In this document: piece by piece, positions 28,278 to 59,670 of the stretch | Numbering within the stretch: the stretch's first letter is position 1 | Layout: every line of letters starts with the position of its first letter | DNA from: Polyangia bacterium | GTDB taxonomy: Bacteria > Myxococcota_A > Polyangia > JAAYKL01 | Assembly: GCA_050304755.1 (NCBI GenBank) | Contig: JBNLED010000067.1 | Coordinates: forward strand, 1 to 59,909 | Direction of reading: 5' to 3' | Length of the DNA: 59,909 nt | Notes under the pieces: generated by a model | Database searches by the model: none | Told to the model about the DNA's origin: nothing | The model's input: only the letters and a program-made list of their open reading frames with translations | Position numbers and translations under genes: made by a program

Positions 28278-28655
28278 CTATTTCTTTGCGCTGGTTCGGC
28301 GGTGATCGACGAACCGCTTCATGTCCCCGAGGCCGCCGCCGTTCTTTACGCTGGTGAAGCCGTTCGCCAGGAGGATCTGCTTGGCGACGGCGGAGCGGCT
28401 TCCGGAGCGGCAGTAGACGATGATTTCCTTTTTGGCGTCCAGTTGGTGTAGCCGGCGTTCCAGGTCCCCCACCGGGATGTTGACCGCGCCGGGGAAGTGC
28501 CAGGCGGCGAATTCCCTCGGCGTGCGGACATCGATGACCTGGCTCGAAGCCGGAACGGATTGTACCTCGGAGGCCGAACCGCATCCCGCGACCGCGGTGA
28601 TGAGAGCGACCGCTGCGAGGGTCAGGGGGATCTTGAATGGCGTTAGGGTCCGCAT
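28278..28655 (-). CDS. Single-domain rhodanese lipoprotein.
   Basis: The start MRTLTPFKIPLTLAAVALITAVAGC has a lipobox; the track ORF is over-extended upstream. The rhodanese motif is IDVRTPREFAAWHFPGAVNIP...IIVYCRSGSRSAVAK with an active-site Cys. Confidence 0.7.
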   Translation of the reverse strand: MRTLTPFKIPLTLAAVALITAVAGCGSASEVQSVPASSQVIDVRTPREFAAWHFPGAVNIPVGDLERRLHQLDAKKEIIVYCRSGSRSAVAKQILLANGFTSVKNGGGLGDMKRFVDHRRTSAKK

Positions 28656-28672: not shown

Positions 28673-29005
28673 TCAGTTGATCTCTTTTTCGAGCATCGCC
28701 GAGAAGTCGCCCTTGGGCCGCGCGCCGATCACGACGTCCTTCACCTCGCCGCCGCTGAACAGCGCCACCGTGGGGATGGAGCGGATTCCCATGGCCGAGG
28801 CCACCTGTCGCTCGTTGTCCACGTTCACCTTGACCACCTTGGCCTTGCCGGCGTACTCGACCGCCAGCTCCTCCAGCACCGGACCCACCATGCGGCACGG
28901 TCCACACCAGGGGGCCCAGAAGTCCACCAACACGGGCACTTCACTCTTACCCACCACCTCGTCAAAGTTCGAATCGGTTCCTTCTACGATGTTATTGGCT
29001 GCCAT
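28673..29005 (-). CDS. trxA: Thioredoxin.
   Basis: The [11 protein letters not shown] active site is present. An AAGGAG SD precedes the ATG at 29005. Length is 110 aa. Confidence 0.85.
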
Positions 29006-29084: not shown

Positions 29085-29522
29085 TCAGGCGCCGCGTTTC
29101 TCGATAAAGATGACCCGGTTCTCGTCGAGCTCCCGGTTGAGCTGCTGGCGGGCTCGGTCGACGGCCTCCAGATCGTTTCCCTGGAGGGCCTCGTGGTAGG
29201 TGACCAGGAAGGGCAGGTCGTCCAGAATCTCCTCGAACAGGGTTGCCTTGTCGGGGACGACCTTCGCGCGGGGGACGAGCTCGCAGTCCACGGTGCTGGC
29301 CAGTATCCTGAGGGCCGACATGGCGATCTCCTTGCCCCCGTTTTCCACCAGCGCCTTGAGGAGCTGCTCCAGCCGGTCGATGGGGTTCCGCTTGGGATCC
29401 GCGGAGAAGTCGGGATCCTGGGCCCAATAGTCGATCATCCGCGAGCTCCGGTTGCCGTAGATGGGATAGATGGCCTTCTTCAGGATCTTCCGGGCCCGTT
29501 CGTAGACTTCCCAGCTCCTCAT
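29085..29522 (-). CDS. Hypothetical cytoplasmic protein (145 aa), last recognisable gene of the pspA-containing operon.
   Basis: It starts 5 nt after the pspA stop on the same strand. It looks alpha-helical with no known motif. Confidence 0.5.
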
Positions 29523-29527
29523 GGGCG

Positions 29528-30217
29528 TTACTGGCCTTCTCCGCCGGCCAGCTCCGCCTTCAGCGCCTCCAGCTCTGCGTCCGCGTCCGTCATGTCGAGC
29601 TTCTCGAACGCCTTCTGGAGCTCCACATCCTCGGTGTCTGCCATGTCGTCATAGGCCTTGGCGAGGGCCTCCTCCCGCGCCACGGTGTCCTCGAACCGCT
29701 GCAGGGACTGGAAGGCGTTGTCCCCCTCGGAGACCCCGGCGAGGGCCTTGGCCACCTTCTTCTGGGCGTTGGCGGCGTTCTTCCGGGCGATGAGGGTGGC
29801 GGAGGTGCGCCTGGCCTCGGCGATCTTGTTGCGCAGCATGTCCACCTGGGATTTCAGCTTGGCCCGGACCGCGTCCGCGTCCGCCACCCCCTTCTCCATG
29901 GACTGGGCCAGGCGATCGCACTCCCCCTTCTTGGCCAGCGCCTTCTTGGCCAGCGCTTCGTTTCCGGCCTCGAGGGCCTTCACCGCCTTCTGTTTCCAGT
30001 CCGCGGCGGCGTCCTTGTTCTTCTCGTACTCGGCCACCAGGCGGTTGTGGTTGCTCATCGCCTCGGCGGAGGCCTTGATCACATTGTTCAGCTCGGTCTC
30101 CATGTCCCGGATGGTCTGCTTCAGTGTCGTCTCAAAGGTTGCGTCTTCCAAAACATCCATCCCCTGGTGGGCCTTGCCCTTGAAAACCCGTGACAAACGG
30201 TTGAAAAGTCCTGACAT
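29528..30217 (-). CDS. pspA: PspA/IM30/Vipp1-family membrane-stress protein (phage shock protein A).
   Basis: The N-terminal amphipathic helix MSGLFNRLSRVFKGKA is followed by a long coiled coil with the typical PspA heptads, ending (D/E)...ELEALKAEL. Confidence 0.85.
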   Translation of the reverse strand: MSGLFNRLSRVFKGKAHQGMDVLEDATFETTLKQTIRDMETELNNVIKASAEAMSNHNRLVAEYEKNKDAAADWKQKAVKALEAGNEALAKKALAKKGECDRLAQSMEKGVADADAVRAKLKSQVDMLRNKIAEARRTSATLIARKNAANAQKKVAKALAGVSEGDNAFQSLQRFEDTVAREEALAKAYDDMADTEDVELQKAFEKLDMTDADAELEALKAELAGGEGQ

Positions 30218-30266
30218 TTTTCGTCTCCTTCTTTATCGCGCCCGAACCGGCCGGGCGCTCTCACGC

Positions 30267-30686
30267 CTACTTCTCCAGCAGGTCCTTTGCCATTACGGTG
30301 TCCACCAGCAGGAAGTTCAGGCACGAGAGGATGTCGTCCCGATCATCATCCCCCATCTCCTGGAGCTTACAGAAGTTGTTCAGCGTGATGGCGACCTTGT
30401 CCTCCCCGAGGGGATACAGCTTGAACGCCGAGGTGGAGATGCCGTTATCCGACATCAACATGGCCTGCATCTGATCGGGGGTGATCTCGGATGACTTCAC
30501 CACCTTGCAGGACACGGTGTTGAAGAGCACGTCGTTTTCGAGCACCGATGTGATCAGGACGCTGCTCTCGAGATCGCGAATCTGAAGCGATGAGTCGTCT
30601 GATCCGACGATCTCGTAACCCGCTTCCACCAGCAGGGCGCGGACCTCGTCGATGCCGATTTCCACGCTCTCTTGTCGATTACTCAT
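30267..30686 (-). CDS. YbjN-like (putative sensory transduction / T3SS-chaperone fold) protein, first gene of the pspA operon (weak family call).
   Basis: It is 139 aa and acidic. The alpha/beta pattern resembles E. coli YbjN (DVLF...V..KV; AFKLY....KVAITLNNFC). Confidence 0.4.
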   Translation of the reverse strand: MSNRQESVEIGIDEVRALLVEAGYEIVGSDDSSLQIRDLESSVLITSVLENDVLFNTVSCKVVKSSEITPDQMQAMLMSDNGISTSAFKLYPLGEDKVAITLNNFCKLQEMGDDDRDDILSCLNFLLVDTVMAKDLLEK

Positions 30687-30800
30687 TTTCCTTCTCCTTT
30701 TTTACGTTTCACCTATTGTCGCATTCACTCGCTGAACGAAGCGAACCGAAGTCCCTGTCTGATGAGTAGCTCCCATAGAGAAGATACAAGCACCAGGGTT

Positions 30801-30817
30801 GGCAACCTCTGCGCCCA
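30801..30817 (-). promoter_or_regulatory. Candidate sigma-54 (-24/-12) promoter for the YbjN-like / pspA operon.
   Basis: The minus strand reads tGGGcgcagaggTTGCc, with GG and GC spaced 10 nt apart, about 115-130 bp upstream of the YbjN-like ATG. The plus strand also reads TGGCA-N..-GCGC, so orientation is ambiguous. GG-N10-GC occurs by chance in high-GC DNA. Confidence 0.2.
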
Positions 30818-30938
30818 CGTCCTGCTCTCAAGATAAAGCTATTCGGAATAACAGGCAATTTCTAAAACCCCGAGATTTGAACTTCGGATCGGAGTGGTGC
30901 GACCAGGTTTCCCCCCTCTCTCAATTCGGCAATCCCCC

Positions 30939-31005
30939 GGTTGCGATCGGGTCTCCCCCCAAGTTGCGATCGGGTCTCCCCTCGGTTGCAATCAGGTCTC
31001 CCCCC
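30939..31005. repeat. Tandem direct repeat A: three copies of about 22 bp (GGTTGCGATCGGGTCTCCCCCC).
   Basis: The copies are at 30939-30960, 30963-30983 and 30984-31005, with one to three substitutions each. They lie in the divergent intergenic region between the pspA operon and nfeD-floT. Confidence 0.85.
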
Positions 31006-31024
31006 TGGGAAATGTGCGCAAAAC

Positions 31025-31113
31025 GCAGGGGGACACCTCGTGAAAAGCAGGGGGACACCTCGTAAAAAGCAGGGGGACACCTCGTAAAACGCAGGGGAAC
31101 ACCTCGTGAAAAC
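31025..31113. repeat. Tandem direct repeat B: four copies of 22 bp (GCAGGGGGACACCTCGTGAAAA).
   Basis: The copies are at 31025-31046, 31047-31068, 31069-31090 and 31091-31113. The core GGGGGACACC is nearly the reverse complement of the repeat-A core GGTCTCCCCCC. Confidence 0.85.
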
Positions 31114-31379
31114 GCGATTTTGCCGCCAAAACACTCCCGCACGATTGATGAAGCGCACCTTCGTCCAAACGTCCATCTTCTCCATTCCATCCAATCTCCG
31201 AGCCTCCCCGGCAGAGTTCTATTATGAAAAAATTTGAACTTATCAAACCTCACTTTCCGGGTTACAGTTATCACTGCATTCACCTCGCTGAGCTTGAAAA
31301 ACTCGTGCGTTACCTCTGGCCCTTTGAAGGGGGCCGCCCGGCGCATCGATTGCGGTCCCTGGGAAGGAAGGAGACTTTG

Positions 31380-32156
31380 ATGGAACAGCTCGGATTACTC
31401 GCGGCGGCCATGTTCGCCCCCATTAATCTGGGATACACGATTCTGTTGATTGTCATCCTCATCTACTGGGGCCTCGTCATCATCGGGGCGTTGGGCATCG
31501 ACTCCTTCGACTTCGATCTGGACAGCGATGTGGACGCCAACCTGGATGTGGACGCCAACCTGGATGTGGACGCGGATATGGATGTGCACGCGGACGCGGA
31601 TGTGCACGCGGATGCGGATATGGATGCGGACGCGGACGCTGACGCCCACGCCGACGGAGACGGCGACGCGGATGCCCACCACGGCGGCTTCCTCCACGGG
31701 CTGCTCACTTTCTTCAACCTGGGGGAGGTGCCACTGATGGTGTTCGCCAGCGTCCTCGTGCTGTGTATGTGGGCCATCTCCATGACGGTGAACGTGGTGC
31801 TGAACAACGAGTCTTTTATACTGGGGGTGCCCCTGTTCGCGGGGAATCTGTTCGTGAGCTCCATCGTCGCGAAGTTCCTGACGACCCCCATCAAGCACGT
31901 CTTCCGGGCCCTCGACAAGGCCACGGATATCGAGCCGGGACACGACGTCCTCGGCCAGACCTGTGTCATTTCCACCAGCGAGGCGACCGATAGCTTCGGT
32001 CAGGCGACCATCGAGACGGACGGCGCGCCGCTTATCCTCAACGTGGTGACCTACCGGGGAGAGACTTTAAAAAAAGGCCAGGAGGCCGTGGTGATCGACT
32101 ATATCAAGGACAGACGGGTGTACACCGTAAAAAGCAGATGGGACGAGGAGGAGTAA
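31380..32156 (+). CDS. NfeD / YqiJ-like membrane protein (flotillin partner) with an internal Asp-rich tract and a C-terminal OB-fold.
   Basis: A GGAAGGAAGGAG SD lies 6 nt before the ATG at 31380; the track ORF starts earlier at 31224. Two TM blocks flank a D-x-D-x acidic insert ([22 protein letters not shown]...). The C-terminal soluble beta domain ([36 protein letters not shown]) is typical of NfeD short homologues. The stop abuts the flotillin start. Confidence 0.6.
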
Positions 32157-32157
32157 G

Positions 32158-34374
32158 ATGTCGGGAATAGTACCTGGAACAATCGTGTTGAGCCCCTTCG
32201 AGGGGCTGGATCCCACAATCATATTCGGAGCGGTGGGGATCATCGGCGCCATCATCCTGTTTGGCCTGCTGTCGATGCTCCTCAAGTGTTACAAAAAGGT
32301 GAACCAGGGCACGGCCCTCATCCGGAACGGCATGGGGGGCACCAAGGTGAGCTTCTCCGGTATGATGGTATTTCCGGTGATCCACAAAATGGAGATGATG
32401 GAGATCTCCGTCAAGCGGGTGGAGATCGACCGGATGGGGCAGAACGGGCTCATCTGCAAAGACAACATGCGGGCGGACGTCAAGGTGGCGTTCTTCGTCC
32501 AGGTCAACAAGACCCCCCACGATGCGCTCAAGGTGGCCCAGGCCCTCGGGTGCGTCCGCGCCTCCGATCCCCAGTCGCTGATAGAGTTCTTCGACGCCAA
32601 GTTCTCCGAGGCCCTCAAGACCGTGGGCAAGCAGTTTGACTTCGTCGAGCTCTACAACAACCGGCAGCGGTTCAAAGAGGAGATCCTCAAGGTCATCGGC
32701 ACGGACCTCAACGGGTACGTCCTGGACGACGCGGCCATCGACTACCTCGAGCAGACCAGCATCAAATACCTCGACCCCAACAACATCCTGGACGCGGACG
32801 GTATCAAGAAGATCACTGATCTCACGGCCAAGCAGGCGGTGCTCGCCAACGACATCGAGCGGGAGAAACAGAAGATCATCAAGAAGCAGGACGTGGAGGC
32901 CAAGGAGACCATCCTCCAGCTCGAGAAGCAGCAGGCCGAGGCCGAGCAGACCCAGGCCAGGGAGATCGCCGAGATCACGGCCCGCCAGACCGCCGAGGCG
33001 ATGAAGGTGCAGCAGGAGGAGCGGCTCAAGGCGGAGAAGGCCCGCATCATGTCGGACGAGGAGATCGCCATCGCCGAGGAGAACCGGCAGCGGCAGATCA
33101 TCGTGGCGGCCAAGAACAAGGAGCGCACCACCGCGGTGGAGACCGAGCGGGTCAAGAAGGACCAGGAGCTGGAGGCCACCGAGCGGGAGCGTACCGTCAC
33201 CCTGGCGCAGATCGAAAAAGAGAAGGCCGTGGAGGTAGAGAAGCGGAACATCCAGGAGGTGATTCGCGAGCGGGTGAACGTGGAGCGGTCCGTGGTGGAG
33301 CAGGAGGAGAAGATCAAGGACACCAAGGAGTTCGCCACCGCGGAGCGATCGAAGAAGGTGGCCATCACATTGGCGGAGGAGCAGGCCGAGCAGGAGAAGA
33401 TCAAGGTCGTCAAGATCGCGGAGGCCTCCAAGGAGGCGGCCGACCTCAGGGCCAAGGAGCAGATCATCATCGCCGAGGGGCAGCGGGCCGCGTCCGAGAA
33501 AGAGGCGGACGCCCGGAAGATCATCGCGGACGCCACGGCCCAGGAGGAGGCGGTCAAGGGCTTCGGCGAGGCCCGGGCGCTGGAGGCCAAGGCCGAGGCG
33601 CAGGAGAAGTACGGCACCGCGGAGGCGGCGGTCATCGAGCGGAAGGCGACGGCCGAGGCCAAGGGGCTCGAGGCCCAAGCCGTGGCGATAGAGAAGCAGG
33701 GGATGGCCGAGGCCAAGGTTATCGAGAGCAAGGGGATCGCGGTGGCCAAGGGGGAGGAGGCCCACGCGGTGGCTGTGGAGAAGCTCGGGACCGCCGAGGC
33801 CAATGTCTCGCAGCGGAAGTTCCACGCCGAGGCCAAGGGCATCGAGGAGAAGGCCGGGGCCATGAAGCTCTTCGACGACGTGGGTAAGGACCACGAGGAG
33901 TTCAAGCTCAGCCTGGAGAAATCCAAGGAGGTCGAGCTCGCCCAGATCAGCATCCAGACCGAGATCGCCAAGGCCCAGGCGGGCATCGTGGGCGAGGCCC
34001 TCAAGCACGCGAAGATCGACATCGTGGGTGGCGAGACGACCTTCTTCGACAAGATCGTCAGCTCCGTCACCGCCGGCAAGTCGGTGGATCGCATCGTGGA
34101 CCACAGCGGGCTGCTCACGGATGTCCGGCTCTCCCTGCTCGGCGACAAGACCCAGTCCCTCGTCCGCAAGCTGAAGGACGCGGTGTCCAAGTCCGGCATC
34201 GACTCCGGGGACCTCAAGAACCTCTCCGTAGCCGCCCTGCTCTCCAAGATGATCATGAAGGCGGACGACGACCGGACCATCTCACTCCTCGGCAAGCTCT
34301 CGGACACCGCCAAGGAGCTCGGCCTCAATCACGAGAACGCCGCGTCGGTCCTCGGGGACACCAAGAAGAAGTAA
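32158..34374 (+). CDS. Flotillin-like SPFH/Band-7 protein (YqiK/FloT-type) with a very long Glu/Ala/Lys-rich coiled-coil region.
   Basis: An N-terminal TM hairpin is followed by the SPFH core NQGTALIRNGMGGTKVSFSGMMVFPVIHKMEMMEISVKRVEI...DVKVAFFVQV. About 400 aa of EA-repeat coiled coil follow. Total length is 738 aa. Confidence 0.85.
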   Translation: MSGIVPGTIVLSPFEGLDPTIIFGAVGIIGAIILFGLLSMLLKCYKKVNQGTALIRNGMGGTKVSFSGMMVFPVIHKMEMMEISVKRVEIDRMGQNGLICKDNMRADVKVAFFVQVNKTPHDALKVAQALGCVRASDPQSLIEFFDAKFSEALKTVGKQFDFVELYNNRQRFKEEILKVIGTDLNGYVLDDAAIDYLEQTSIKYLDPNNILDADGIKKITDLTAKQAVLANDIEREKQKIIKKQDVEAKETILQLEKQQAEAEQTQAREIAEITARQTAEAMKVQQEERLKAEKARIMSDEEIAIAEENRQRQIIVAAKNKERTTAVETERVKKDQELEATERERTVTLAQIEKEKAVEVEKRNIQEVIRERVNVERSVVEQEEKIKDTKEFATAERSKKVAITLAEEQAEQEKIKVVKIAEASKEAADLRAKEQIIIAEGQRAASEKEADARKIIADATAQEEAVKGFGEARALEAKAEAQEKYGTAEAAVIERKATAEAKGLEAQAVAIEKQGMAEAKVIESKGIAVAKGEEAHAVAVEKLGTAEANVSQRKFHAEAKGIEEKAGAMKLFDDVGKDHEEFKLSLEKSKEVELAQISIQTEIAKAQAGIVGEALKHAKIDIVGGETTFFDKIVSSVTAGKSVDRIVDHSGLLTDVRLSLLGDKTQSLVRKLKDAVSKSGIDSGDLKNLSVAALLSKMIMKADDDRTISLLGKLSDTAKELGLNHENAASVLGDTKKK

Positions 34375-34401
34375 CGTCGGAGCGAATCGGAAGGCCTGGA
34401 C

Positions 34402-37400
34402 ATGGCTGAAGCAGAAGCGAAAAGAGAAGAAACTAAGGAGCAGCTCGCCGGCGGCACCTACGAGATCATCCGGAACCGCCTGAACAACCACGCCGAGGCC
34501 CTCCGGGGACGGCTCGACGCGCTCAACCAGGCGCGGAAAGAGGTGTTCGGATCCATCGAGTCCGCGCTCATCGCCCAGGAACGGGTCACCACCGACAACA
34601 ACTGCGTCCCGCGGGATATGGTGTGCATCGGGGAGCAGTTCCTCTTCGGCTACAATGTCCACCTGGGGCTCAAGAGCGAGTTCAAGGTAGGGGACGTGTT
34701 CTCGGTCTACAGCTACGCGGATCACGCCTTCACCAAGACCGAGCTCACCCTCATCAAGGACAAGCAGTTCCAGGAGGACTTCCGGAATCTCTACCATTAC
34801 TACAAGGCGACCTCATTCTCACAGTTCGCCCGCATCGGCACCAGCCTGTTCATGGTCTTTAGGGTGGGCAAGGACACGGATGCTATCAAGACCTTCAAGT
34901 GGGTGGTGAACGAGGACCACACCCTCACCTATGTGGACAACCGCAGCGACCACGAGTACAGGTTCCCGCCCCAGCACGAGTTCGAGTGGCGGCGGGCGAC
35001 CCGCGATCAGCACCGGGGGGGGGAGTTTCCCCACGTCTCCATCGACGACCGCATTTTTGTGGAGACCACCGGCGGGGACCTGACCGTCAAGGTGGAGGAC
35101 AATACGGAAACGGGCGCCGGCATCTACGCGGAGCCGGTGGACGATCCCGACCAGACCCTGGACGACGCGGAGTTCCACTACGCGGTCCTGGGAAACCTGA
35201 TCCTGCTGAAGATCAAGCCCTACCGGGAGGAGGCGTACCGCTACATCGTCTATAACGAGAAGGTTCAGGAGGCGCGGCGCATCGACACCATCAAGGACGC
35301 CTGCGTGCTCCTCCCCGAGGACCACGGCATCATCTTCTCCAACGGCTACTACCTCCAGAACGGCGAGTTCAAGCTCTTCGAGAGCGAGCTCTCGGACATG
35401 CACTTCCGGAAACGGATCTCGTCGCCCAACGGCGAGGATACCCTCTTCGTGTTCTTCAACCGGGAGAGCGGCACCTACATGCTGCTCGCCTACAATATGA
35501 TCGAGCAGACCGTCGCCACCCCCACCGTCTGCAACGGCTACTCCACCTTCGAGAACGGCGAGATGATCTACTTCAAGTCGGACGGGGAGCCCAAGAAGCA
35601 CCACCCCATCCAGATCTGGCAGACGCCCTTCGTGAGCGCCAACTACGAGGCGCCCCAGAAGAGCGATTCGTTCCTCTACAAGCTGGGCAACCGCGACATC
35701 GTGCGGGCCATGGCCGCCTGCCGCGCCGTGCTCAACCTGGTGGGCAAGGAGGAGAGCTACGCCAACGTCTATGTGGACATCTCCCGGGAGGCCAACGACA
35801 TCCTGGATGCCTACTTCTGGCTCGACAAAGAGGAGGCCGAGAACCTGAGGGAGCCCCTCGAGGGGATCCGCCGGGCCGCCGGGAACGCCATCGAGGAGTT
35901 CGAGAAGGTGGTCCGGCTCCGGAAGGACACCGCCGAGCAGGTGGGGGCCGCCTCCGCGGAGATCAAGGAGATCCTGTCCGGCATCGCCACCCGGCGGTTC
36001 GCCGATATCGGCGACTTCGTGGAGCTGCTGGCCCGCCTCCGGACGGTGCGGGGGCGGACCATCGGCCTCAAGGAACTGCGCTACGTGGACCTGGAGGAGG
36101 TGGCGGCGCTGGAGAAGGTGGTCGAGGAGAACACAGCGAGCCTGGCCAATCGGTGCGTGGCGTTCCTGCTCTCCGATGAGGCGCTCGCGCCCTACGAGCA
36201 GAAGGTGGTGAAACTAAAGGCCGCCATCGAGCCGGTCAAGACGGTGAAGGACGCCAAGTCCCTCGAGTCGGAGATCGTCACCTCCGGGGGTGAGCTGGAG
36301 ATGCTCATCGAGATCGTGAGCAACCTCAAGATTGAGGACGCCCGGGATCGCACCAAGATCATCGACGGGATTTCCGAGATCTACGCCACCCTGAATCAGG
36401 CCCGCTCCACCCTGAGCAACCGCATCAAGTTCCTGGCCTCCGCCGAGGGGGAGGCGGAGTTCGGCTCCCAGATCAAGCTGCTGGACCAGGCGGTGATCAA
36501 CTACCTCGACGTGTGCGACACGCCCGAGAAGTGCGACGAGTACCTCACCAAGATAACGGTTCAGGTGGGGGAGCTGGAGGGGCGCTTCTCCGATTTCGAC
36601 CAGTTTATCATAGAGCTCACCGAGAAGCGGGACGAGATCTACAACGCCTTCGAGTCCCGAAAGCTCTCATTGGTAGAGGCGCGGAACAAGAAGACCGACG
36701 CCTATCTCCGGAGCGCCGAGCGGATCCTGTCGGGAATCAATACCCGGGTACAGCAGCTCACCACCGTCGAGGAGATTAACGGCTACTTCGCCTCCGACCT
36801 CATGGTGGACAAGGTCCGGGATATTATCGAGCAGCTCCGGGAGCTGGACGACATCGTCAAGGCGGACGATATCCAGTCGCGGCTCAAGACCCTGATGCAG
36901 GATACCCTCCGTCAGCTTCGGGATCGCAACGAGCTGTTCGTGGCGGGGGAGAACGTCATCAAGTTCGGCGAGCACCACTTCTCGGTGAACACCCAGGACC
37001 TGGCCCTCACCATCGTGGACCGGGAGGACGGGCTCTACCTGCACCTCACCGGCACCAACTTCTTCGAGCGGATCGACGACCCGCGGATCGAGGAGACGAG
37101 GCCGGTGTGGGACCAGCAGCTGGTCTCGGAGAACGAAGAGGTCTACCGCGGCGAGGTCCTGGCCTACGCCATGCTCAAGGCGCTCCGGGGGGATCCCAAG
37201 GCGTTCGAGGACGCGGCATCCCTCAATGAGGAGTCGCTGGTCCCTGAGGTTCGGGAGTTCATGGCGCCCCTCTACGCCGAGGGGTATGTCAAGGGGGTTC
37301 ACGATGTGGACGCGGCCAAGTACCTGGCGGTGCTCCTCCGAATGGAGGCCACCATCGGGCTGCTCCGGTTCCACCCGCGGGCCAGGGCCCTGGCCATGCT

Positions 37401-39675
37401 CTACTGGCACCAGCTGGGACAAACGGGGAAAGAGCGGCGTGCCGCTTTGGGCTCCAAGCTTCGAGGCGTCGGGGAGATCAACAAGATTTTTCAAAGTCGC
37501 AGGCAGCGGGCGCAGTACCTCCCGGAGCTTCAGACCGAGCTGGAGAATTTCACTCGGGAAGCAGGGCTCTTCGATATCATTTATTGTGCACCGGCGGCCG
37601 AGTATCTCTTCGATGTCCTCACCAACGAGGAGCGGTTCGCCATCAGCGGGGAGGCCCACCGGATCTACCGCGGCCTCATGGATCACCTGGACCGGCGGGG
37701 CGCAACGAAAGCGCTGCAAGAGCCCCTCGACCAGCTGGGGGACCGGTTTGCCGACGCGCTCGTACTGCTCAAGGATTGGGTATCTGCCTTCCTCGAGAGC
37801 CGTCATGAGGAGGCATCCGATGACTACATCGAAGAGGTGGCGGTGCTGTTTATCAACGGCCTCTTCGACAGCCAACTCGTGGTCAGCGCCGAGGTGGAGC
37901 AGGAGATAGTCGGGCTGGTGGGGGATCACCCGGTGCTCGTCGAGGGAAAGGTGACCCTCAACTACAACCGCTTCACCATGAAGCTGACCCGGTTCGAGAT
38001 GGAGACGGTGCCGCTCTTCGAGGCGCACCAGCGGCTGAAAAAAGAGATCGTCGAGGAGGCCACCGATGCGCTCCGGCTGGAGGAGTTCCGCCCGCGGATT
38101 CTCAGCTCGTTCGTGCGCAACCGGCTCATCGACAAGGTGTACCTGCCCCTGGTGGGGGATAACCTGGCCAAACAGATCGGCGTGGTGGGCGCGGAGACCC
38201 GCACCGATCGGATGGGGCTTTTGCTGCTCATCTCCCCGCCGGGCTATGGCAAGACCACCCTGATGGAGTATATCGCCAACCGCCTTGGGGTCATCTTCAT
38301 GAAGATCAACGGCCCCGCCATCGGTCACAAAGTGACCTCTCTCGATCCCGGGGAGGCGCCCAACGCGGCGGCCCGGGAGGAGATGAAGAAGCTCAGCCTC
38401 TCCTTCGAGATGGGCGACAACGTGATGATTTACCTGGACGACATTCAGCACTGCAACCCGGAGTTCCTTCAGAAGTTCATCTCCCTCTGCGACGCCCAGC
38501 GAAAGATCGAGGGGGTGTACAAGGGCCGGACCCGGACCTACGACTTCCGCGGGCGGCGGGTCTGCGTGGTGATGGCGGGCAACCCCTACTCCGAGAGCGG
38601 CGAGGCGTTCAAGATCCCCGACATGCTGGCCAACCGGGCGGACACCTACAACCTGGGGGACATCATCGGCGAGAGCGACGAGGCCTTCAAGCTCAGCTAC
38701 CTGGAGAACGCCCTCACCTCGAGTCCGGTCCTCGGGAAGATGGCCGCCAAGAACTTCAAAGACGTGTACGGCATCATCCGGGCCGCGGCGTCGGGGAGCC
38801 GGGAGGGGATAGACTTCGAGGGGAACTACTCGGGGCCGGAAATCGAGGAGTACATCTCGGTGATGAAGAAGCTCCTCAAGGTCCGCGATGTGATCCTGAA
38901 GGTCAACCAGCAGTACATCTACTCGGCGGCCCAGGCGGACGAGTACCGCACCGAGCCCCCCTTCAAGCTCCAGGGATCGTACCGGAACATGAACCGCATC
39001 ACCGAGAAGGTGCTGCCCATCATGAACGACGAGGAGCTCGTCAACCTGGTGAACGACCACTACGCGAGCGAGTCCCAGACCCTGACCACCGCCTCCGAGG
39101 CCAACCTGCTCAAGTTCAAGGCGCTCACCGACGCCCTCACCGGGCCCGAGGCCGACCGCTGGAACGAGATTAGGAGCACCTTCAACCGGAACCAGCTCCT
39201 CGGCGACGACAGCGATCCCATGCGCCAGGTCATCGCGGTGCTCAGCACGTTCCGGGAGGGGCTCGGCGCCATTCAGGGGACCCTGGAGAGCGGCATCGAG
39301 CAGATGGCGAACAGCCAGCCCATTGTTATTGAGACCTCCCGGGCGGTCTCCCTCGATACTTCCGAGGAGGAGTCGACGGGAATGTTCCAAGCACCGGAGA
39401 GGACCATCCCCGCGGCGGAGAGGACCGTTCCGGTATCAAAGAGGACGGTTCCCGCGGAGGAGACCGTCCGCGTATCGAACACCGATCCCCCACCGGAGGA
39501 CAAGCCCCCGCAGGCACAGAAGAGCGCTTCGCCGTCATCAAAGAAAGCGCTCCGGTCATCGGTGAAGTCGCGCGCCCCGTCCGACCAGAAGACGAGCTCC
39601 CCGGCTCCCAAGAAGGGGGCCTCGACGTCCGCGGCGGCACGGCGGATCATCAATATTCATGACGAGGAGGAGTAA
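34402..39675 (+). CDS. Giant protein (1757 aa) with one MoxR/AAA_5-like ATPase module near the C-terminus; function unknown.
   Basis: A continuous ORF with good codon usage. A GGAAGG SD precedes the ATG, which is 27 nt after the flotillin stop. Walker A LLLISPPGYGKTTL is at about 38230. Walker B MIYLDDIQH is at about 38430, and a MoxR-type sensor region VCVVMAGNPY...IPDMLANRADTY follows. The N-terminal ~450 aa look beta-rich, the middle ~800 aa helical, and the C-terminal tail is Pro/Ser/Lys-rich with three ERT(I/V)P repeats. Confidence 0.7.
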   Translation: MAEAEAKREETKEQLAGGTYEIIRNRLNNHAEALRGRLDALNQARKEVFGSIESALIAQERVTTDNNCVPRDMVCIGEQFLFGYNVHLGLKSEFKVGDVFSVYSYADHAFTKTELTLIKDKQFQEDFRNLYHYYKATSFSQFARIGTSLFMVFRVGKDTDAIKTFKWVVNEDHTLTYVDNRSDHEYRFPPQHEFEWRRATRDQHRGGEFPHVSIDDRIFVETTGGDLTVKVEDNTETGAGIYAEPVDDPDQTLDDAEFHYAVLGNLILLKIKPYREEAYRYIVYNEKVQEARRIDTIKDACVLLPEDHGIIFSNGYYLQNGEFKLFESELSDMHFRKRISSPNGEDTLFVFFNRESGTYMLLAYNMIEQTVATPTVCNGYSTFENGEMIYFKSDGEPKKHHPIQIWQTPFVSANYEAPQKSDSFLYKLGNRDIVRAMAACRAVLNLVGKEESYANVYVDISREANDILDAYFWLDKEEAENLREPLEGIRRAAGNAIEEFEKVVRLRKDTAEQVGAASAEIKEILSGIATRRFADIGDFVELLARLRTVRGRTIGLKELRYVDLEEVAALEKVVEENTASLANRCVAFLLSDEALAPYEQKVVKLKAAIEPVKTVKDAKSLESEIVTSGGELEMLIEIVSNLKIEDARDRTKIIDGISEIYATLNQARSTLSNRIKFLASAEGEAEFGSQIKLLDQAVINYLDVCDTPEKCDEYLTKITVQVGELEGRFSDFDQFIIELTEKRDEIYNAFESRKLSLVEARNKKTDAYLRSAERILSGINTRVQQLTTVEEINGYFASDLMVDKVRDIIEQLRELDDIVKADDIQSRLKTLMQDTLRQLRDRNELFVAGENVIKFGEHHFSVNTQDLALTIVDREDGLYLHLTGTNFFERIDDPRIEETRPVWDQQLVSENEEVYRGEVLAYAMLKALRGDPKAFEDAASLNEESLVPEVREFMAPLYAEGYVKGVHDVDAAKYLAVLLRMEATIGLLRFHPRARALAMLYWHQLGQTGKERRAALGSKLRGVGEINKIFQSRRQRAQYLPELQTELENFTREAGLFDIIYCAPAAEYLFDVLTNEERFAISGEAHRIYRGLMDHLDRRGATKALQEPLDQLGDRFADALVLLKDWVSAFLESRHEEASDDYIEEVAVLFINGLFDSQLVVSAEVEQEIVGLVGDHPVLVEGKVTLNYNRFTMKLTRFEMETVPLFEAHQRLKKEIVEEATDALRLEEFRPRILSSFVRNRLIDKVYLPLVGDNLAKQIGVVGAETRTDRMGLLLLISPPGYGKTTLMEYIANRLGVIFMKINGPAIGHKVTSLDPGEAPNAAAREEMKKLSLSFEMGDNVMIYLDDIQHCNPEFLQKFISLCDAQRKIEGVYKGRTRTYDFRGRRVCVVMAGNPYSESGEAFKIPDMLANRADTYNLGDIIGESDEAFKLSYLENALTSSPVLGKMAAKNFKDVYGIIRAAASGSREGIDFEGNYSGPEIEEYISVMKKLLKVRDVILKVNQQYIYSAAQADEYRTEPPFKLQGSYRNMNRITEKVLPIMNDEELVNLVNDHYASESQTLTTASEANLLKFKALTDALTGPEADRWNEIRSTFNRNQLLGDDSDPMRQVIAVLSTFREGLGAIQGTLESGIEQMANSQPIVIETSRAVSLDTSEEESTGMFQAPERTIPAAERTVPVSKRTVPAEETVRVSNTDPPPEDKPPQAQKSASPSSKKALRSSVKSRAPSDQKTSSPAPKKGASTSAAARRIINIHDEEE

Positions 39676-39714: not shown

Positions 39715-41031
39715 CTAGCGAAGCGCGACGCGAGCGGCGTAAGCGTCCACCGCCTCCAGCGCGGTCGCGGCCGCCGCTTCCCGCCGCTGCCGTTTCCCCT
39801 GTCCCCGCTTTTTCGGCGGCGTATCGATCATCATCCACACGACGTTGGAGGGTTGGAAGTTTGCCGCGGGGAGGGTCAGATACCGCAGCAATCCACCGAT
39901 GGCCGTGGTGGGAGGTGGGGGCTCCAGATCCGTCCCTCGGATTTCGGCGGCGATGAACAATCCCGCCATCAGACCGCAGGCGATGGACTCCACGTAGCCC
40001 TCGACCCCGCTGATCTGGCCGGCCAGGGTGATTCGGGGAGAGGACTTCAACCGCAGGCGGCGGTCCAGGATTTCAGGCGCGTTTACGAAGGTGTTCCGGT
40101 GGACCTGACCGTATCTCTCGAACACCGCCCGCTCCAGGCCGGGGATGAGCCGGAAGATCCGTTTCTGCTCCGGTCGGGTGAGCCGGGTCTGGAAGCCCAC
40201 CAGGTTGAACGCCGTGCCCTCCCGGTCCTCCCGCCGCAGCTGGACCACGGCGAAGGGCCGCCTGCCGGTTCTTGGATCCGTCAGACCAACGGGCTTGAGG
40301 GGGCCGTGGGCCAGGGTGAGGGGACCCCTCCGGGCGATCTCCTCCACCGGAAGACACCCCTCGAAGAACGGCGCGTGCTCGAAGTCTTTGAGGGCGACCT
40401 TTTCGGCGGCGAGCAGCGCCTCCACGAACCGGAAGTACTGCGCCTCGTCCATAGGACAGTTGAGGTAGGCGCTGTCCTCGGCGGGATCCTCGTACCTCGA
40501 GGCGGCGAACACCACCTCCCGGTCGATTCGGTCCCCGGCGACGAGGGGGGCGATGGCGTCGTGATAGTGGAGCAGGGCGCCGTGGGACGAGAGCGCCTCC
40601 GCCAGCCCGCCGCCGGTGAGGGGGCCGGTGGCGACGATGACCCGATCGTCCGGAAGTCGCTCGATGGTTTCAGTGGATATGGTGATGTTCTCGTGGCTGG
40701 AAACCGCCGCCTCCACGGCCTCGGAGAAGAGGACCCGATCGACCGCAAGGGCCCGCCCCGCGGGAACTGCGGTCCGCTCCGCCACGCGCATCAACAGGGA
40801 CCCGAGCCGTTTCAGCTCCTCCTTGAGCAGGCCGACGGCGGAGGAGAGCGCGCCGCCGCGGAGGGAATTGGAGCAGACGAGCTCGGCCAGCCGCGGGGAG
40901 CTGTGCGCCGGGGACATCCGCTCTGGTTTCATCTCCTTGAGGACCACCGGGAGCCCTCTCTCGGCGAGCTGCCAGGCCGCCTCGCATCCCGCAAGCCCGC
41001 CGCCGACCACGGTAATGGGGTCATTCGTCAT
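39715..41031 (-). CDS. trmFO: Methylenetetrahydrofolate--tRNA-(uracil54-C5)-methyltransferase TrmFO (Gid).
   Basis: FAD-binding motif ITVVGGGLAGCEAAWQLAERG is followed by the signature ELVCSNSLRG. Length is 438 aa. Confidence 0.85.
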   Translation of the reverse strand: MTNDPITVVGGGLAGCEAAWQLAERGLPVVLKEMKPERMSPAHSSPRLAELVCSNSLRGGALSSAVGLLKEELKRLGSLLMRVAERTAVPAGRALAVDRVLFSEAVEAAVSSHENITISTETIERLPDDRVIVATGPLTGGGLAEALSSHGALLHYHDAIAPLVAGDRIDREVVFAASRYEDPAEDSAYLNCPMDEAQYFRFVEALLAAEKVALKDFEHAPFFEGCLPVEEIARRGPLTLAHGPLKPVGLTDPRTGRRPFAVVQLRREDREGTAFNLVGFQTRLTRPEQKRIFRLIPGLERAVFERYGQVHRNTFVNAPEILDRRLRLKSSPRITLAGQISGVEGYVESIACGLMAGLFIAAEIRGTDLEPPPPTTAIGGLLRYLTLPAANFQPSNVVWMMIDTPPKKRGQGKRQRREAAAATALEAVDAYAARVALR

Positions 41032-41285
41032 TACGAAATGCTTCTAGCACGATAGGGGAGATTGCAAAATGCTTCTGATTGTTGACCACCACGTCGGACG
41101 ACGGAACGAACTGCTAAGTTGTCGATATTGCTTGTGTGTTTGGCGTGTCCTGTGCTCCCTTGTTTTCTACTGAGCCCGGAGCACGGCAGATTTATTGATA
41201 AATTTTATATCTTGTTTGTACGATACTTAAGAATATAATTGAGCAAAAATCGTCTATTCGACCAGACAGTAGAACCAAGGAGTCA

Positions 41286-41531
41286 ATGAGTATGAAAAAG
41301 ATACTGCTAACCCTGATTTTTGGCACCATGTTCGCCGCCACGATGCTCTCGGCAAACGGCAAGCACAACAAGGCCCACCTCAGCATGAAGGGAAAGGACG
41401 ACGCGAAAATCAACTGCGTCTACTGCCACAAGACCGCGAAGATAGCGAAGAAGAAGGGGCAGGATCTCAAGCAGTTCGACTCGAGTCCCTACTGCTCGGG
41501 CAAGGGCTGCCATCCCGTCCCGCCGAAGTAA
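41286..41531 (+). CDS. Small secreted mono-heme c-type cytochrome (about 55-aa mature protein) in a low-GC islet.
   Basis: The signal peptide is MKKILLTLIFGTMFAATMLSANG. CVYCH is a CxxCH haem-binding motif, and a second CSGKGCH (CxxxxCH) lies near the C-terminus. An AAGGAG SD is well spaced for the second ATG at 41292. The surrounding ~350 bp are AT-rich, unlike the rest of the window. Confidence 0.55.
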   Translation: MSMKKILLTLIFGTMFAATMLSANGKHNKAHLSMKGKDDAKINCVYCHKTAKIAKKKGQDLKQFDSSPYCSGKGCHPVPPK

Positions 41532-41556
41532 CCAAGGCGGCCGACCTGTTCGGCGA

Positions 41557-43158
41557 TCACCGTTTCAAGAAGAGCTTCAAAGTGTGGGCGGCCTCTTTCG
41601 TGTCGAAGGGGCAGTCCTTCAGCTCGTCCCGTCGGCTCACGGCCTCGAAGGTCTGATCCAGAAAATTCATGAAGTCTTCGCAGGCGGTGATGACGTTGGA
41701 GACCTGCTGAATTTCCAGCACGGCCCCGTCCCGCAGCCGATCCACGAGCTGCATGAACTTGTCGAACTCGGCGTAGTCGGAGTAGCGGAGGAGCTGGTAC
41801 CCCATGGTGCGGAAATACCCTACGAACTCCCGGACGAACCGGAAGGTGTTCATCCCGGACCAGCGATCGGTGGTCTTGATGGTTCCCCGGGTCTTCTCGA
41901 TGAAGGCCCGAAGCACCTTCTGGAACATCCAGATGTCCCGCCGCAGCCGATTGGAGCGCTCCTTCGCCGAGACGAACTGGACGAACACCCGCTTCCCCTG
42001 GAGCGTGGGATCGAACTCCCGGGCGAGGAGGATCGTGGCGTTCTGGATGAACGCGGTCAGAGAGGTGCAGGCCGCAGCGGTCCGGTCGGTGAACTGCTTC
42101 CAGCTGTCGATGGCGCCGATGGCCGGGATCTGCTGTTCATAGGATTTGATCTGTTCGAGGCGGAGCTGATCTCCCGTCGAAACGAGCAGCTCCTTGACGG
42201 CCCGGAGCCGTTTGAACTCATCGTGCAGGCCGGCGTACCGCGATGAGAGGGTGACGGGGGGCAGCCGATCATAGAGCTTGGCGAATCCCGAAGAGAGCCA
42301 GCGGGAGGCCTCCCGCTTGAAGAAGATGATGAGCGCCCGGGTGTCGGAGCGCAGCACCGCGAGCCAGGCGAGCAGCACCCGCGGGGGGACCTTCTGGCTG
42401 ATGGCGCGGCGGATGCATCGCATGTACTTGAGCAGCCGGAACATGGAGAGGAAGGTGAGGGTCATCACCCGCCTCGCGGGTTCGCTCTCGATATTCTGGA
42501 TCAGGTGGAGCATCCGGTCCGGGTGCACCTTGTCGAACTCCTCCCGGAATTCCAGGGCGGCCAGGGGGTCGAAGAAGGTCGACCGGTGGATCTCCCGCTG
42601 GGCCAGATGGATGATGTTCGAGAAGAGCCGAAAGGAGACGTGGGGCAGCCTGGAGAGGCCGTCGACAATCTCGAGCAGGTTGCTGAAGCCGCCGATGATG
42701 AGCCTCAGGCTCTGGTTGGGGTTGTCCTGATCCAGGGACTGCTTCACCATCTTGAAGCGGGCCTCGTCCTGGCCGATGATGCTCTCCAGATACCGCTGGA
42801 AGATCAGGGAGCTCCCCTGGGTTCGCGAGAGCTTCCGACCAACGGAGATGATTCGCCGGATGATGTCGCGGGCGATGGCGAGCTCCTCCTTGAACGCCCT
42901 GGCCACCGCCGGCTCTCCCCGGAGCGGAGGCCCGGGATGGTTGACCGGGTTGCCGAAACAGATGAGCCCCTTGAGCAGCATCTCGAACTCGAAGAAGACG
43001 TTCTCCTTGTCCGGGAGGATCAGGCCGTCGAACCAGATGGCCCTCGCCGCGGCGTGCTCCTTTCTCAACCACCGGGATCCCTCGATGAACTCGATGTAGT
43101 AGTTGCGCTTCCCCGACGGCCTCTCCTCGGTTCTGTCATCGTTGAGGCTGACGCTCAA
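41557..43158 (-). CDS. Hypothetical protein (533 aa), translationally coupled to ruvB.
   Basis: The ORF is in a consistent frame with no recognisable motif and is predicted alpha-helical. Its start overlaps the ruvB stop (43155-43158). Confidence 0.5.
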
Positions 43159-44189
43159 AACAACCTCCCCTGAGAGGGACCGTCGAAGGGTAGCCCCAGG
43201 TGCTCGTATGCCCTCCGTGTGGCGACCCGACCGCGGGGGGTCCGTTTGAGATAGCCGTTCTGGATGAGGTAGGGCTCGTAGACGTCCTCGACCGTGTCCC
43301 TGGGCTCCGCCACCGCCGCGGCGATGGTCTCGATCCCCACCGGGCCGCCGTCGAACTTGTCGATGATGGTCAGGAGAATCCGGCGATCCATCTCGTCGAA
43401 CCCGGCGCTGTCCACGTCCAGCCGTTCCAGGGCGTATTCCGCCACCTTCAGGTCTACCCGGCCGTCCCCCTTCACCTCGGCGAAGTCCCGCACCCGCCGC
43501 AGCAGCCGGTTGGCGATCCGCGGTGTTCCTCGGGCCCGTTTGGCGATCTCCCGGGCCCCCTCCGGGGCGATGGGGACGTCGAGCAGCTTGGCGGATCGCA
43601 GCACGATCTGTTCAAGCTCCTCGGGAGGGTAGTAGTCGAGCCGGAGGGTGACGCCGAAGCGGGAGAGCAGCGGCGAGGTGAGGAGCCCCGTGCGCGTGGT
43701 GGCCCCGACCAGCGTGAAGGGCTGGAGGGGGAGCTTGTAGGAGGCGGCGTGGGGTCCGTCTCCGGCGACGATGTCAATCTCGAACTCCTCGATGGCGGGG
43801 TAGATGTTCTCCTCCACGATGGGGTTGAGGCGGTGAATTTCATCGATGAAGAGCACGTCCCGGTGCTCCACTTTGCTCAGCAGGGCGGCGAGGGAGCCCT
43901 TATGCTCCACCGCGGGGCCGGAGGTCATGTGAATCTCCACGCCGAGCTCCGCCGCGATGATGTGGGCGAGGGTGGTCTTCCCGAGGCCCGGGGGACCCGA
44001 GAGTAGCACGTGGTCGAGGGGTTCGCTCCGCCTCCGGGCCGCCTCGATGTAAACCTTGAGGTTCGCCTTGTGCCGGGTCTGTCCTATGTATTCATCGAGG
44101 GTGCGGGGCCTGAGCGTGAGATCGAAGACCCGATCCCCGTCCTCCATGACGGGCTCGAGAACGCCGCGATCAGGGGGCGAAGAGTCCAT
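43155..44189 (-). CDS. ruvB: Holliday junction branch-migration helicase RuvB.
   Basis: The Walker A region is [23 protein letters not shown]. Other conserved RuvB motifs are present ([25 protein letters not shown]). Confidence 0.9.
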
Positions 44190-44192
44190 GGC

Positions 44193-44780
44193 CTAACGCT
44201 CCTTCAACATCCCGAGGGCCTCCCGGAGGGCGATCTCGAAGGGGGCCTCCTGGAGCCCCTTCTGGCGGATCTCCGCCAGCACCCGATCCACCTGACCGGC
44301 CTTGAATCCCAAATTCTGGAGGGCCGAGCCGAGCTCGGACAGCATGCCCGTTCGCGCTCCGTCCGGCTGCTCCTTGGAGGGCTTCAGCTTCCCCCCCAGC
44401 TCCAGGATCATGCGCTCCGCGGTCTTCTTTCCGATGCCCGGGATAGCCGAGAGCCGTCTCGCGTCCGATTCCCCGATGACCCGGGCCAGCTCCTGTCCCG
44501 ACAGGCCGCCGAGCACGGCCAGCGCCAGCTTGGGGCCCACGCCGCTCACCTTGAGCATGGTCTGGAACGCGACCTTGTCGTTCTTGGAGTCGAAGCCGAA
44601 CAGCTTGAAATCGTCCTCCCGCACATAAGTATGAATGTGGAGGGTCGCCGTCTCCCCCGCCTTGGGGAGCCCGGCGAGGGTGCTGAGGGGAACCCAGACC
44701 TGGTATCCCACGCCCTGGACATCCAGGAGCACCGACTCCGTGTCCTTGTCCGCTATCTTCCCCTGAAGGCGACCGATCAT
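44193..44780 (-). CDS. ruvA: Holliday junction DNA-binding protein RuvA.
   Basis: The N-terminus MIGRLQGKI...LLDVQGVGYQVWVP is the RuvA OB domain. Two HhH motifs (GVGPKLALAVL and IPGIGKKTAERMILEL) follow. The track ORF is over-extended by 12 codons. Confidence 0.85.
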   Translation of the reverse strand: MIGRLQGKIADKDTESVLLDVQGVGYQVWVPLSTLAGLPKAGETATLHIHTYVREDDFKLFGFDSKNDKVAFQTMLKVSGVGPKLALAVLGGLSGQELARVIGESDARRLSAIPGIGKKTAERMILELGGKLKPSKEQPDGARTGMLSELGSALQNLGFKAGQVDRVLAEIRQKGLQEAPFEIALREALGMLKER

Positions 44781-44955
44781 GCGAGGAGCATACCGCCAAA
44801 GGTGCCCGGTAAACAAGTTTGGATTCGAAATAAGTAATCGGCGTCGTTGAACAAATTCATCTTCGCAAATACCGGCTTCCGGTCATTTGGCTATTGGCTT
44901 TTTACAATGAATACCGTATGCCATCGATTGTTGTCTCTAGTACAAGGAAATGTAA

Positions 44956-59319: not shown

Positions 59320-59392
59320 GCTGGCGTAGCTCAATCGGTAGAGCACCTGATTTGTAATCAGGCGGTTGCGGGTTCGAGTCCCATCGCCAGCT
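59320..59392 (+). tRNA. thrU: tRNA-Thr (anticodon TGT).
   Basis: The cloverleaf has acceptor GCTGGCG/CGCCAGC, D-stem GCTC/GAGC, and anticodon stem CCTGA/TCAGG with loop TTTGTAA. The T-loop is TTCGAGT, with one C-A mismatch in the T-stem. CCA is not encoded. Confidence 0.8.
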
Positions 59393-59423
59393 CTGGCACA
59401 TGTAGCCTTGAATTTTATATCTT

Positions 59424-59507
<84 letters not shown>

Positions 59508-59541
59508 CTGAGGACGGGTTTGTGTGCTGGTCAGAAGGTCA

Positions 59542-59614: not shown

Positions 59615-59670
59615 CTGTTGGGTTTTTCAGGTGCTTGAGCGCCCCGAGGAGTTTAACAGGAGTTTTCTAC

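Follow-up and report, generated by a model that had tools for sequence, protein, structure and literature searches.

A giant MoxR-like AAA+ protein accompanies flotillin-like and NfeD-like genes across phyla, with PspA as an optional neighbour

Which membrane system does a giant AAA+ protein belong with when its gene stands back to back with two of them? The question is raised by a locus of a Polyangia bacterium (Myxococcota_A; GenBank assembly GCA_050304755.1, contig JBNLED010000067.1), in which an operon encoding an NfeD-like protein, a flotillin-like SPFH protein and a giant AAA+ protein is transcribed divergently from an operon encoding PspA and two small proteins. The window hereafter denotes the whole stretch of DNA that was analysed (59,909 nucleotides). 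The original prediction, made from these letters alone, proposed that the SPFH scaffold, NfeD and the giant ATPase could form an undescribed, energy-dependent membrane-remodelling or stress module. We found that the flotillin/NfeD pair is the constant partner of the giant motor and PspA the optional one. The module is not undescribed, since the locus is a rearranged member of a class of PspA-associated flotillin/NfeD/propeller-AAA+ operons already recognised by comparative genomics (Ravi et al. 2024, PMC11237479).

Scanning one genome per GTDB species, we detected relatives of the giant protein in at least 568 species. Among the matches listed, 80 loci were retrieved (designated by L numbers), from Planctomycetota, Bacteroidota, Verrucomicrobiota, Kiritimatiellota, Desulfobacterota, Omnitrophota and Clostridia, and the linkage counts cover the 63 loci with at least 3.5 kb of upstream DNA. 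A flotillin-like gene is encoded directly upstream of the giant gene, on the same strand, in 60 of the 63 loci (95%), representing at least seven phyla; it lies within 4.5 kb in 59 of them and slightly farther away in L061. An NfeD-like gene is also present upstream in at least 52. The original prediction had called for this neighbourhood analysis, and the homologues were found to adjoin an SPFH gene nearly always and a PspA gene repeatedly. The best matches of the window proteins come from metagenome-assembled genomes labelled Deltaproteobacteria, Myxococcota and Planctomycetes, and the giant protein has culturable carriers in Hymenobacter, Leeuwenhoekiella, Maribacter, Pontibacter and Symmachiella.

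PspA belongs to the same co-directional operon in 18 of the 63 loci, all read as Bacteroidota, and is absent from the other 45. In 17 of these 18 loci the gene before it encodes a protein with a match to Pfam CesT_Tir_1 (E=1.4e-52). L164 is the nearest relative on a long contig, its proteins being 69-81% identical to those of the window, and it shares the divergent layout of the window, with NfeD-flotillin-giant on one side and the 139-aa protein followed by PspA on the other. PspA thus occurs in two gene orders and with two families of small partners, and both arrangements are therefore joined to the same trio. The recurrence of this optional PspA dyad suggests that two membrane-integrity systems cooperate.

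Other genes recur beside the trio. In 17 Bacteroidota loci (including L025, L030, L032, L038, L039, L045, L055, L067, L068, L074, L076 and L082), the divergent neighbour is a helix-turn-helix (HTH) protein of the HTH_3 family, about 250 aa long, with a weak match to Peptidase_S24 (LexA/CI-like, E=0.0022); judged from these matches, it may be a dedicated, perhaps cleavable, repressor. Six loci of Verrucomicrobiota and Kiritimatiellota (L009, L042, L043, L047, L048 and L081) encode a Phage_CP76 protein of 155-171 aa directly beside the NfeD-flotillin-giant operon, mostly in divergent orientation. An extra open reading frame (ORF) of 107-240 aa is present between the flotillin-like and giant genes in some Bacteroidota loci (L022, L025, L032 and others). 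One recurring type of extra ORF (c11; five loci, also at other positions) was read by eye as possibly related to DUF559/Vsr-like endonucleases.

The giant protein is itself widely distributed and strongly conserved. More than 6298 homologues were found at 90% clustering, mostly named "DNA repair ATPase" or "hypothetical", and 457 clusters at 50% identity have E<=1e-30. Full-length members measure 1.6-1.9 thousand residues and remain colinear down to 27% identity. Between phyla the identity is 47-64% and hundreds of alignment columns are invariant. Among them are those of the beta2-alpha2 loop of the AAA+ core, which in MoxR relatives faces the pore of the ring.

The original prediction recognised a single ATPase as the only module of this protein and asked for a Pfam search and a structure prediction of the N-terminal part. 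Pfam in fact covers that part with DUF3686 (residues 34-472, E=8e-193) and DUF7902 (residues 593-676), and from residue 1274 onwards gives weak matches to AAA, AAA_5 (1274-1398) and RuvB_N. The AlphaFold2 model of the N-terminal part, built with 66 sequences (mean predicted local distance difference test score, pLDDT, 84), places a helix at residues 18-49 before a predicted beta-propeller, which is followed by long helices at 424-845 (up to 58 residues each), a small beta unit at 852-890 and a helical domain at 916-1152. Foldseek returned only generic beta-propellers for the propeller region (the terminal domain of clathrin heavy chain, Vps18, IFT-A and WD40 proteins), with low TM-scores, and we draw no homology from the likeness of the modelled propeller to clathrin, Vps18 or IFT-A. 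The Ser/Ala/Pro/Lys-rich tail of the protein is not conserved in homologues. The giant protein is cytoplasmic, and no transmembrane segment was found in it.

The model contains a single AAA+ module at about residues 1240-1500, and its assignment to the MoxR type, as originally predicted, was supported by structure. Its best structural matches are the MoxR family members NorQ and CbbQ, with RuvB ranking below MoxR, and the core, closest to MoxR members, carries a beta-hairpin before sensor 1. The giant homologues share an invariant Walker A motif (GYGKT), an invariant Asn at sensor 1 (N1394) and an invariant Arg farther downstream (R1412). The Walker B motif VMIYLDD ends in DD instead of DE (D1346-D1347, positions 38437-38442), and this pair is invariant in the 12 homologues aligned. 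Since a genuine RuvB is encoded nearby in the window, we regard the RuvB_N match as generic AAA+ similarity only. The expected absence of a vWA domain was likewise confirmed: no VWA match of Pfam was obtained in the six proteins or in the conserved neighbourhood, and the sole VWA gene belongs to an FGE-sulfatase fusion about 7 kb downstream.

The identities of the two proteins encoded upstream of the giant gene required more work. Pfam, NCBIfam and PADLOC gave nothing above threshold for the NfeD-like and flotillin-like proteins, nor for the 139-aa and 145-aa proteins of the PspA operon, and homologue-based searches were needed. The names flotillin and NfeD could be recovered through homologues, although Pfam does not detect either directly in the window proteins.

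For the flotillin-like protein there was no Pfam match even at E<=10 and no sequence match in PDB. Among its homologues (38-64% identical), 4 of 26 match Pfam Band_7 (best E=7e-14), and the family profile matches the SPFH protein QmcA (E=8e-4), but in the coiled-coil region. It has one hydrophobic segment at residues 15-46, and its architecture comprises this N-terminal membrane segment, a putative SPFH region, a long coiled coil rich in Ala and Glu, and a C-terminal domain. We accept it as a probable divergent flotillin-like SPFH protein, a membership that rests on the homologues. The gene also contains an 87-nt tandem repeat in three copies (33583-33847), encoding 29-aa Ala/Glu/Lys-rich repeats in the coiled coil.

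The NfeD-like protein has hydrophobic segments at residues 4-44, 108-143 and 145-165, an Asp-rich loop and a C-terminal soluble domain. Over this domain the family profile weakly matches the soluble domain of Bacillus subtilis YuaF (2k14) with E=0.13, and the protein itself matches YqiJ_N below the cut-off (E=0.03). NfeD/YqiJ-like therefore appears to be its best reading, mainly from position and topology. An 18-nt coding tandem repeat of about six copies (31527-31672) encodes a D/A/H-rich loop; the Asp-rich loop is kept in the consensus of the family, is expanded in the window and might, as a prediction, bind metal ions. A C-terminal DEEE common to the NfeD-like and giant proteins was considered as a meaningful feature and rejected, as it is not kept in other loci.

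All six ORFs and their arrangement in two divergent operons were found as originally described, and their coordinates are given in Table 1. The longest ORF of the NfeD-like gene spans 31224-32156. Homologues align from the Met at 31380, and GGAAGGAAGGAG is located just upstream of this codon, which is why we place the start there; the divergent spacer consequently measures 693 bp, in agreement with the control region of about 700 bp first noted. The stop codon of the NfeD-like gene and the ATG of the flotillin-like gene are separated by 1 nt, with GGAGGAG upstream of the flotillin start. The giant gene was expected to follow after 27 nt with a Shine-Dalgarno sequence of its own, and we confirmed both the 27-nt gap and a GGAAGG 7-12 nt before its ATG. 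On the minus strand, the gaps are 49 nt between the 139-aa and PspA genes and 5 nt between the PspA and 145-aa genes.

Table 1. Coordinates of the genes, spacer elements and giant-protein regions of the locus (positions in the window)
Feature	Position	Strand	Basis or remark
145-aa gene	29085-29522	minus	third gene of PspA operon; ORF list
PspA gene, 229 aa	29528-30217	minus	Pfam PspA_IM30
139-aa gene, upstream partner of PspA	30267-30686	minus	ORF list
Divergent intergenic region, 693 bp	30687-31379		between the two operons
Array A, 22-23-nt direct repeats, core GGTCTCCCCC	30890-31005	plus	four-copy repeat family; Tandem Repeats Finder (TRF) over 30934-31005
Array B, 22-nt direct repeats, core GGTGTCCCCC	31017-31112	minus	TRF over 31020-31112
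NfeD/YqiJ/YuaF-like gene, 258 aa	31380-32156	plus	topology, position, weak profile matches
Flotillin-like SPFH gene, 738 aa	32158-34374	plus	homologues matching Band_7
Giant AAA+ gene, 1757 aa, DUF3686/DUF7902 family	34402-39675	plus	Pfam
Predicted beta-propeller, giant residues 55-410	34564-35631	plus	AlphaFold2, all-beta over 55-407
Helical region, giant residues 424-1152	35671-37857	plus	model secondary structure
MoxR-like AAA+ module, lid and C-terminal helical extension, giant residues 1240-1637	38119-39312	plus	
Disordered Ser/Ala/Pro/Lys-rich tail, giant residues 1646-1746	39337-39639	plus	pLDDT <50 over model residues 496-596

PspA is the only small or membrane protein of the locus that Pfam recognises directly (PspA_IM30, residues 3-222, E=1.8e-40, 139 bits against a cut-off of 33.9). 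PspA/IM30 is a bacterial ESCRT-III-like protein. Components of the classical Psp system were not detected: there was no match to PspB, PspC or Sigma54_activat in the six proteins, and none was recorded among the called neighbours.

The 139-aa protein encoded directly upstream of PspA has no Pfam match, including to CesT_Tir_1, CesT and DUF2170. Its family comprises 636 members, all unannotated. In all four of the other loci read (L088, L089, L090 and L164) a member is located directly upstream of PspA, and three of the four are PspA-DUF4178-DUF350-spermine-synthase operons. The protein had been named YbjN-like; Pfam finds no such match in the window protein, and YbjN appears weakly in 2 of 23 family members (best E=0.067). 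An hhalign comparison of the family with the Pfam-verified CesT_Tir_1 family of Bacteroidota was not significant (probability 4%). Since the sequence support for both YbjN and CesT_Tir_1 is thin, the name YbjN-like stays a hint. The position directly upstream of PspA was assigned to CesT/Tir-like proteins by Ravi et al. (PMC11237479), and the 139-aa protein appears to sit where a CesT/Tir-like or YjfI-like chaperone would.

The third protein of the PspA operon (145 aa) is soluble and has no Pfam or NCBIfam match, nor does Pfam give any in 19 members of its family, which comprises 48 proteins, all unannotated. It has in common with the 155-171-aa family matching Pfam Phage_CP76 (E=4.4e-7) the invariant motif YWAQ..NPxDR..L. 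BLASTP aligns it with a CP76-matching neighbour of other operons over 31 residues (E=4e-5), and profile-profile comparison of the two families by hhalign gave a probability of 44% with E=2e-4. These similarities suggest that it may be a distant HTH regulator of the phage-186-CII type (Phage_CP76-like). Its homologues adjoin PspA in L084, lie upstream of a Band_7 operon in L087 and are found in unrelated contexts in L083, L085 and L086, while neither the 145-aa gene nor the arrays are present in L164.

Two repeat arrays had been noted in the control region, and both were detected. Array A has three good copies and one degenerate copy (TRF 30934-31005, 3.2 copies, score 107) and was also recovered as a four-copy repeat family. 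Array B is the more regular (TRF 31020-31112, 4.2 copies, 90% matches, score 151). The core GGTSTCCCCC is common to the two arrays in opposite orientation, so that they are inverted relative to each other. There are six exact matches to this core in the 59.9-kb window, five of them inside the spacer; 1.08 would be expected, and six was reached in none of 100 shuffles. In the close relative represented by L164 and L165, the inter-operon spacer is only 248 bp long and carries no arrays, so the arrays and about 445 bp are specific to the lineage of the window. The two arrays are thus a lineage-specific addition to the shared control region and may be operator sites.

The half-sites bound by phage 186 CII are spaced about two helical turns apart, a distance that would suit the 22-bp period. 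Binding of the 22-nt arrays by the 145-aa protein is an attractive idea, but we consider it unlikely. Where a CII-like protein is encoded beside the operon in other loci, the spacers showed neither tandem repeats nor spaced half-sites, and no core motif was found near the homologues of the 145-aa gene. The spacer contains no sigma-70 or sigma-54 promoter consensus, the latter being the type used by classical Psp systems, and no Rfam family or tRNA; a T-loop-like string in it was checked. A mobile element was considered as the origin of the spacer and rejected, as neither the window nor any fetched locus contains a second copy. When metagenomes were scanned for pairs of cores spaced 22 nt apart, 73 contigs were returned, none encoding any of the six proteins. 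Nine metagenome contigs (L109, L131, L127, L101, L129, L146, L156, L095 and L102) carry arrays of 3-5 copies with a period of about 22 nt (21-23) and the same 10-nt core GGGGGA(C/G)ACC with differing spacers, in both orientations in L102. These arrays may be compatible with chance among the many tandem repeats of that collection.

Beyond the 145-aa gene, the minus strand continues with a thioredoxin gene (about 28673-29005) and a rhodanese gene (about 28278-28655), labelled by Pfam from called genes, after gaps of 79 and 17 nt. As both lie downstream on the same strand, the PspA operon may have five genes and a redox component. On the other side (39715-44800), the strand opposite to the giant gene encodes a GIDA/FAD-type oxidoreductase, an unannotated 533-aa protein and RuvB-RuvA, and beyond these lie a sulfatase and the VWA-containing FGE-sulfatase fusion. 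The GC content of the window is 0.74 in the first 2 kb and 0.555 at 14-16 kb, and a tRNA cluster (Thr-Tyr-Gly-Thr, 59320-59744) is located at its right end.

SPFH proteins form membrane-attached cages: HflK/C encloses FtsH, QmcA-YbbJ is an SPFH-NfeD cage, and flotillin-1/2 form another. Against this background, the most likely explanation of the locus, which we infer with moderate confidence, is that ATP drives the remodelling of a cage made of flotillin and NfeD, in which PspA takes part optionally. NfeD and the flotillin-like protein would assemble into this SPFH cage at the membrane, on its cytoplasmic side. The AAA+ modules of the giant proteins would join into a ring, from which helical arms and propellers would reach the cage or its clients; the energy of ATP would serve to assemble, open or recycle the cage or whatever clients it holds. 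PspA, together with its small partner, would act as an optional, co-regulated arm for membrane repair and not as the obligatory substrate of the motor, and the 22-nt arrays may serve as operators, possibly for the 145-aa CII-like protein.

Several points weigh against this explanation. Three loci (L014, L029 and L044) encode the giant protein without a flotillin-like gene within 7-10 kb upstream. Pfam models miss the flotillin-like and NfeD-like proteins of the window. The Walker B motif, DD and not DE, makes the rate of hydrolysis uncertain. The arrays were not found in the close relative (L164/L165) or in the other loci examined. Neither an experimental study of any member nor a paper mentioning DUF3686 turned up in full-text literature searches.

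Of the alternatives, the one that survives best makes the ATPase a client-processing chaperone: damaged or unassembled membrane proteins would be kept inside the cage for the motor to extract or refold, much as a protease-less HflK/C-FtsH or a MoxR-type maturation factor at the membrane might do. Its closest structural matches, NorQ and CbbQ, are MoxR relatives that remodel or mature specific complexes, and the thioredoxin and rhodanese genes that follow the PspA operon in the window also fit. FloA-NfeD of Staphylococcus aureus stabilises unfolded proteins (Ukleja et al. 2024, as cited in PMC13086221). The conserved unit, however, encodes no client, protease or vWA adaptor. Although sequence data cannot separate this explanation from cage remodelling, we judge it unlikely.

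Lower still we place the possibility that the giant ATPase is an analogue of Vps4 that disassembles a PspA polymer of the ESCRT-III-like kind, flotillin merely marking the site. PspA is co-operonic in 18 of 63 loci, its operon stands divergently next to the trio in the window and in L164, and Ravi et al. (PMC11237479) draw the ESCRT-III/Vps4 analogy for PspA-AAA+ pairs generally. The 45 loci from which PspA is absent and the non-Vps4 fold of the ATPase make this an improbable account.

We regard as very improbable an anti-phage or conflict system, in which a large nucleoside triphosphatase would have CI-like or CII-like regulators of phage type nearby. Such regulators do stand beside the operon (CP76-like in six loci, HTH_3/S24-like in 17), and PspA was first found as a phage-shock protein. 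PADLOC, however, gives no meaningful matches, a search of 2.9 million viral contigs gave no relative, and the locus is flanked by housekeeping genes such as RuvAB and thioredoxin. The very high conservation across phyla, with an architecture fixed down to 27% identity, is also unlike that of fast-evolving defence genes.

That the giant is a DNA repair ATPase amid incidental membrane genes, as its names in NCBI, UniRef and Pfam ("DNA repair ATPase", "ATPase involved in DNA repair"), its weak RuvB_N and RuvB similarities and the weak LexA/CI-like Peptidase_S24 match of the divergent HTH_3 regulator in Bacteroidota would have it, is scarcely credible, because literature searches found no experimental basis for the name, the RuvB similarity is generic to AAA+ and ranks below MoxR, Pfam detects no DNA-binding or nuclease domain, and a 95% linkage to two membrane proteins is not incidental. 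The name carried by more than 6000 proteins is therefore probably wrong.

Cage remodelling, our preferred explanation, bears on a question that is open in both bacteria and eukaryotes, namely how SPFH/flotillin cages are assembled, opened and turned over. A motor tied to flotillin/NfeD in 95% of the sampled loci is an obvious candidate for the missing energy input, and, given at least 568 GTDB species and culturable hosts, this question is directly testable. A more far-reaching proposal, which we offer tentatively, is that the DUF3686 giants as a group might be dedicated ATP-driven remodellers of flotillin cages: ring-forming motors of the MoxR type, whose propeller-tipped helical arms would grip the SPFH/NfeD dome to open or recycle it and which in some lineages would hand damaged membrane over to PspA. 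If so, no energy-dependent regulator of SPFH microdomains would be known before them, and bacteria would have a counterpart of the Vps4/ESCRT-III logic made from unrelated parts.

Comparison with known systems places the parts of the locus separately. The operons YqiJ-YqiK of Escherichia coli and YuaF(NfeD2)-FloT(YuaG) of B. subtilis encode an NfeD-type protein followed by a flotillin in which an N-terminal membrane anchor, an SPFH domain and a coiled coil rich in Ala and Glu are combined, an arrangement that the locus appears to share. They contain no AAA+ gene, however, and the flotillin-like protein of the window is too divergent for Pfam Band_7 or Flot. A precedent for coupling an SPFH assembly to an AAA+ motor is provided by HflK/HflC-FtsH. 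FtsH is a membrane-anchored AAA protease of the classical clade, whereas the giant protein is MoxR-like and has neither a transmembrane segment nor a protease domain, and in the window the coupling would be read from gene linkage only.

With the MoxR ATPases that work with vWA partners (NorQ-NorD, CbbQ-CbbO and RavA-ViaA), the giant shares the structure of the module, the sensor-1 Asn-Pro and the downstream Arg. It differs from them in having no vWA partner, an N-terminal extension of 1240 residues, the DD of Walker B and SPFH/NfeD neighbours. The ESCRT-III/Vps4 system and PspA-YdjGHI (SamGHI) of B. subtilis resemble the locus through the ESCRT-III-like nature of PspA and the presence of an ATPase that could act as remodeller, but the giant ATPase is not of the Vps4 clade and most of the loci encoding it lack PspA. 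In PspA-YdjGHI an SPFH protein, which recruits PspA, is tied to PspA function (PMC8581546).

The closest known system is the operon class of Ravi et al. (mSystems 2024; preprint 2020; PMC11237479), which combines a CesT/Tir-PspA dyad, a band-7/flotillin protein, a YqiJ/YuaF protein with three transmembrane segments and a propeller-AAA+ protein (example ANH61663.1). Abbreviated operons without PspA were also described, and roles in sub-membrane dynamics and chaperone-like assembly were proposed. The Bacteroidota loci that we retrieved reproduce the published form, and the PspA, propeller and AAA+ features are present in the window as well. The window differs in having two divergent operons instead of a single co-directional one, an extra gene for the 145-aa protein, two repeat arrays and a 139-aa partner of PspA that has no CesT_Tir_1 match and belongs to the family found in PspA-DUF4178-DUF350-spermine-synthase operons. 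To this class our results add a divergent layout shared with a relative, a different family of PspA partners, a possible CII-like regulator and lineage-specific arrays, together with an ATPase placed by structure near NorQ and CbbQ, its DD Walker B motif and a quantified linkage to flotillin and NfeD.

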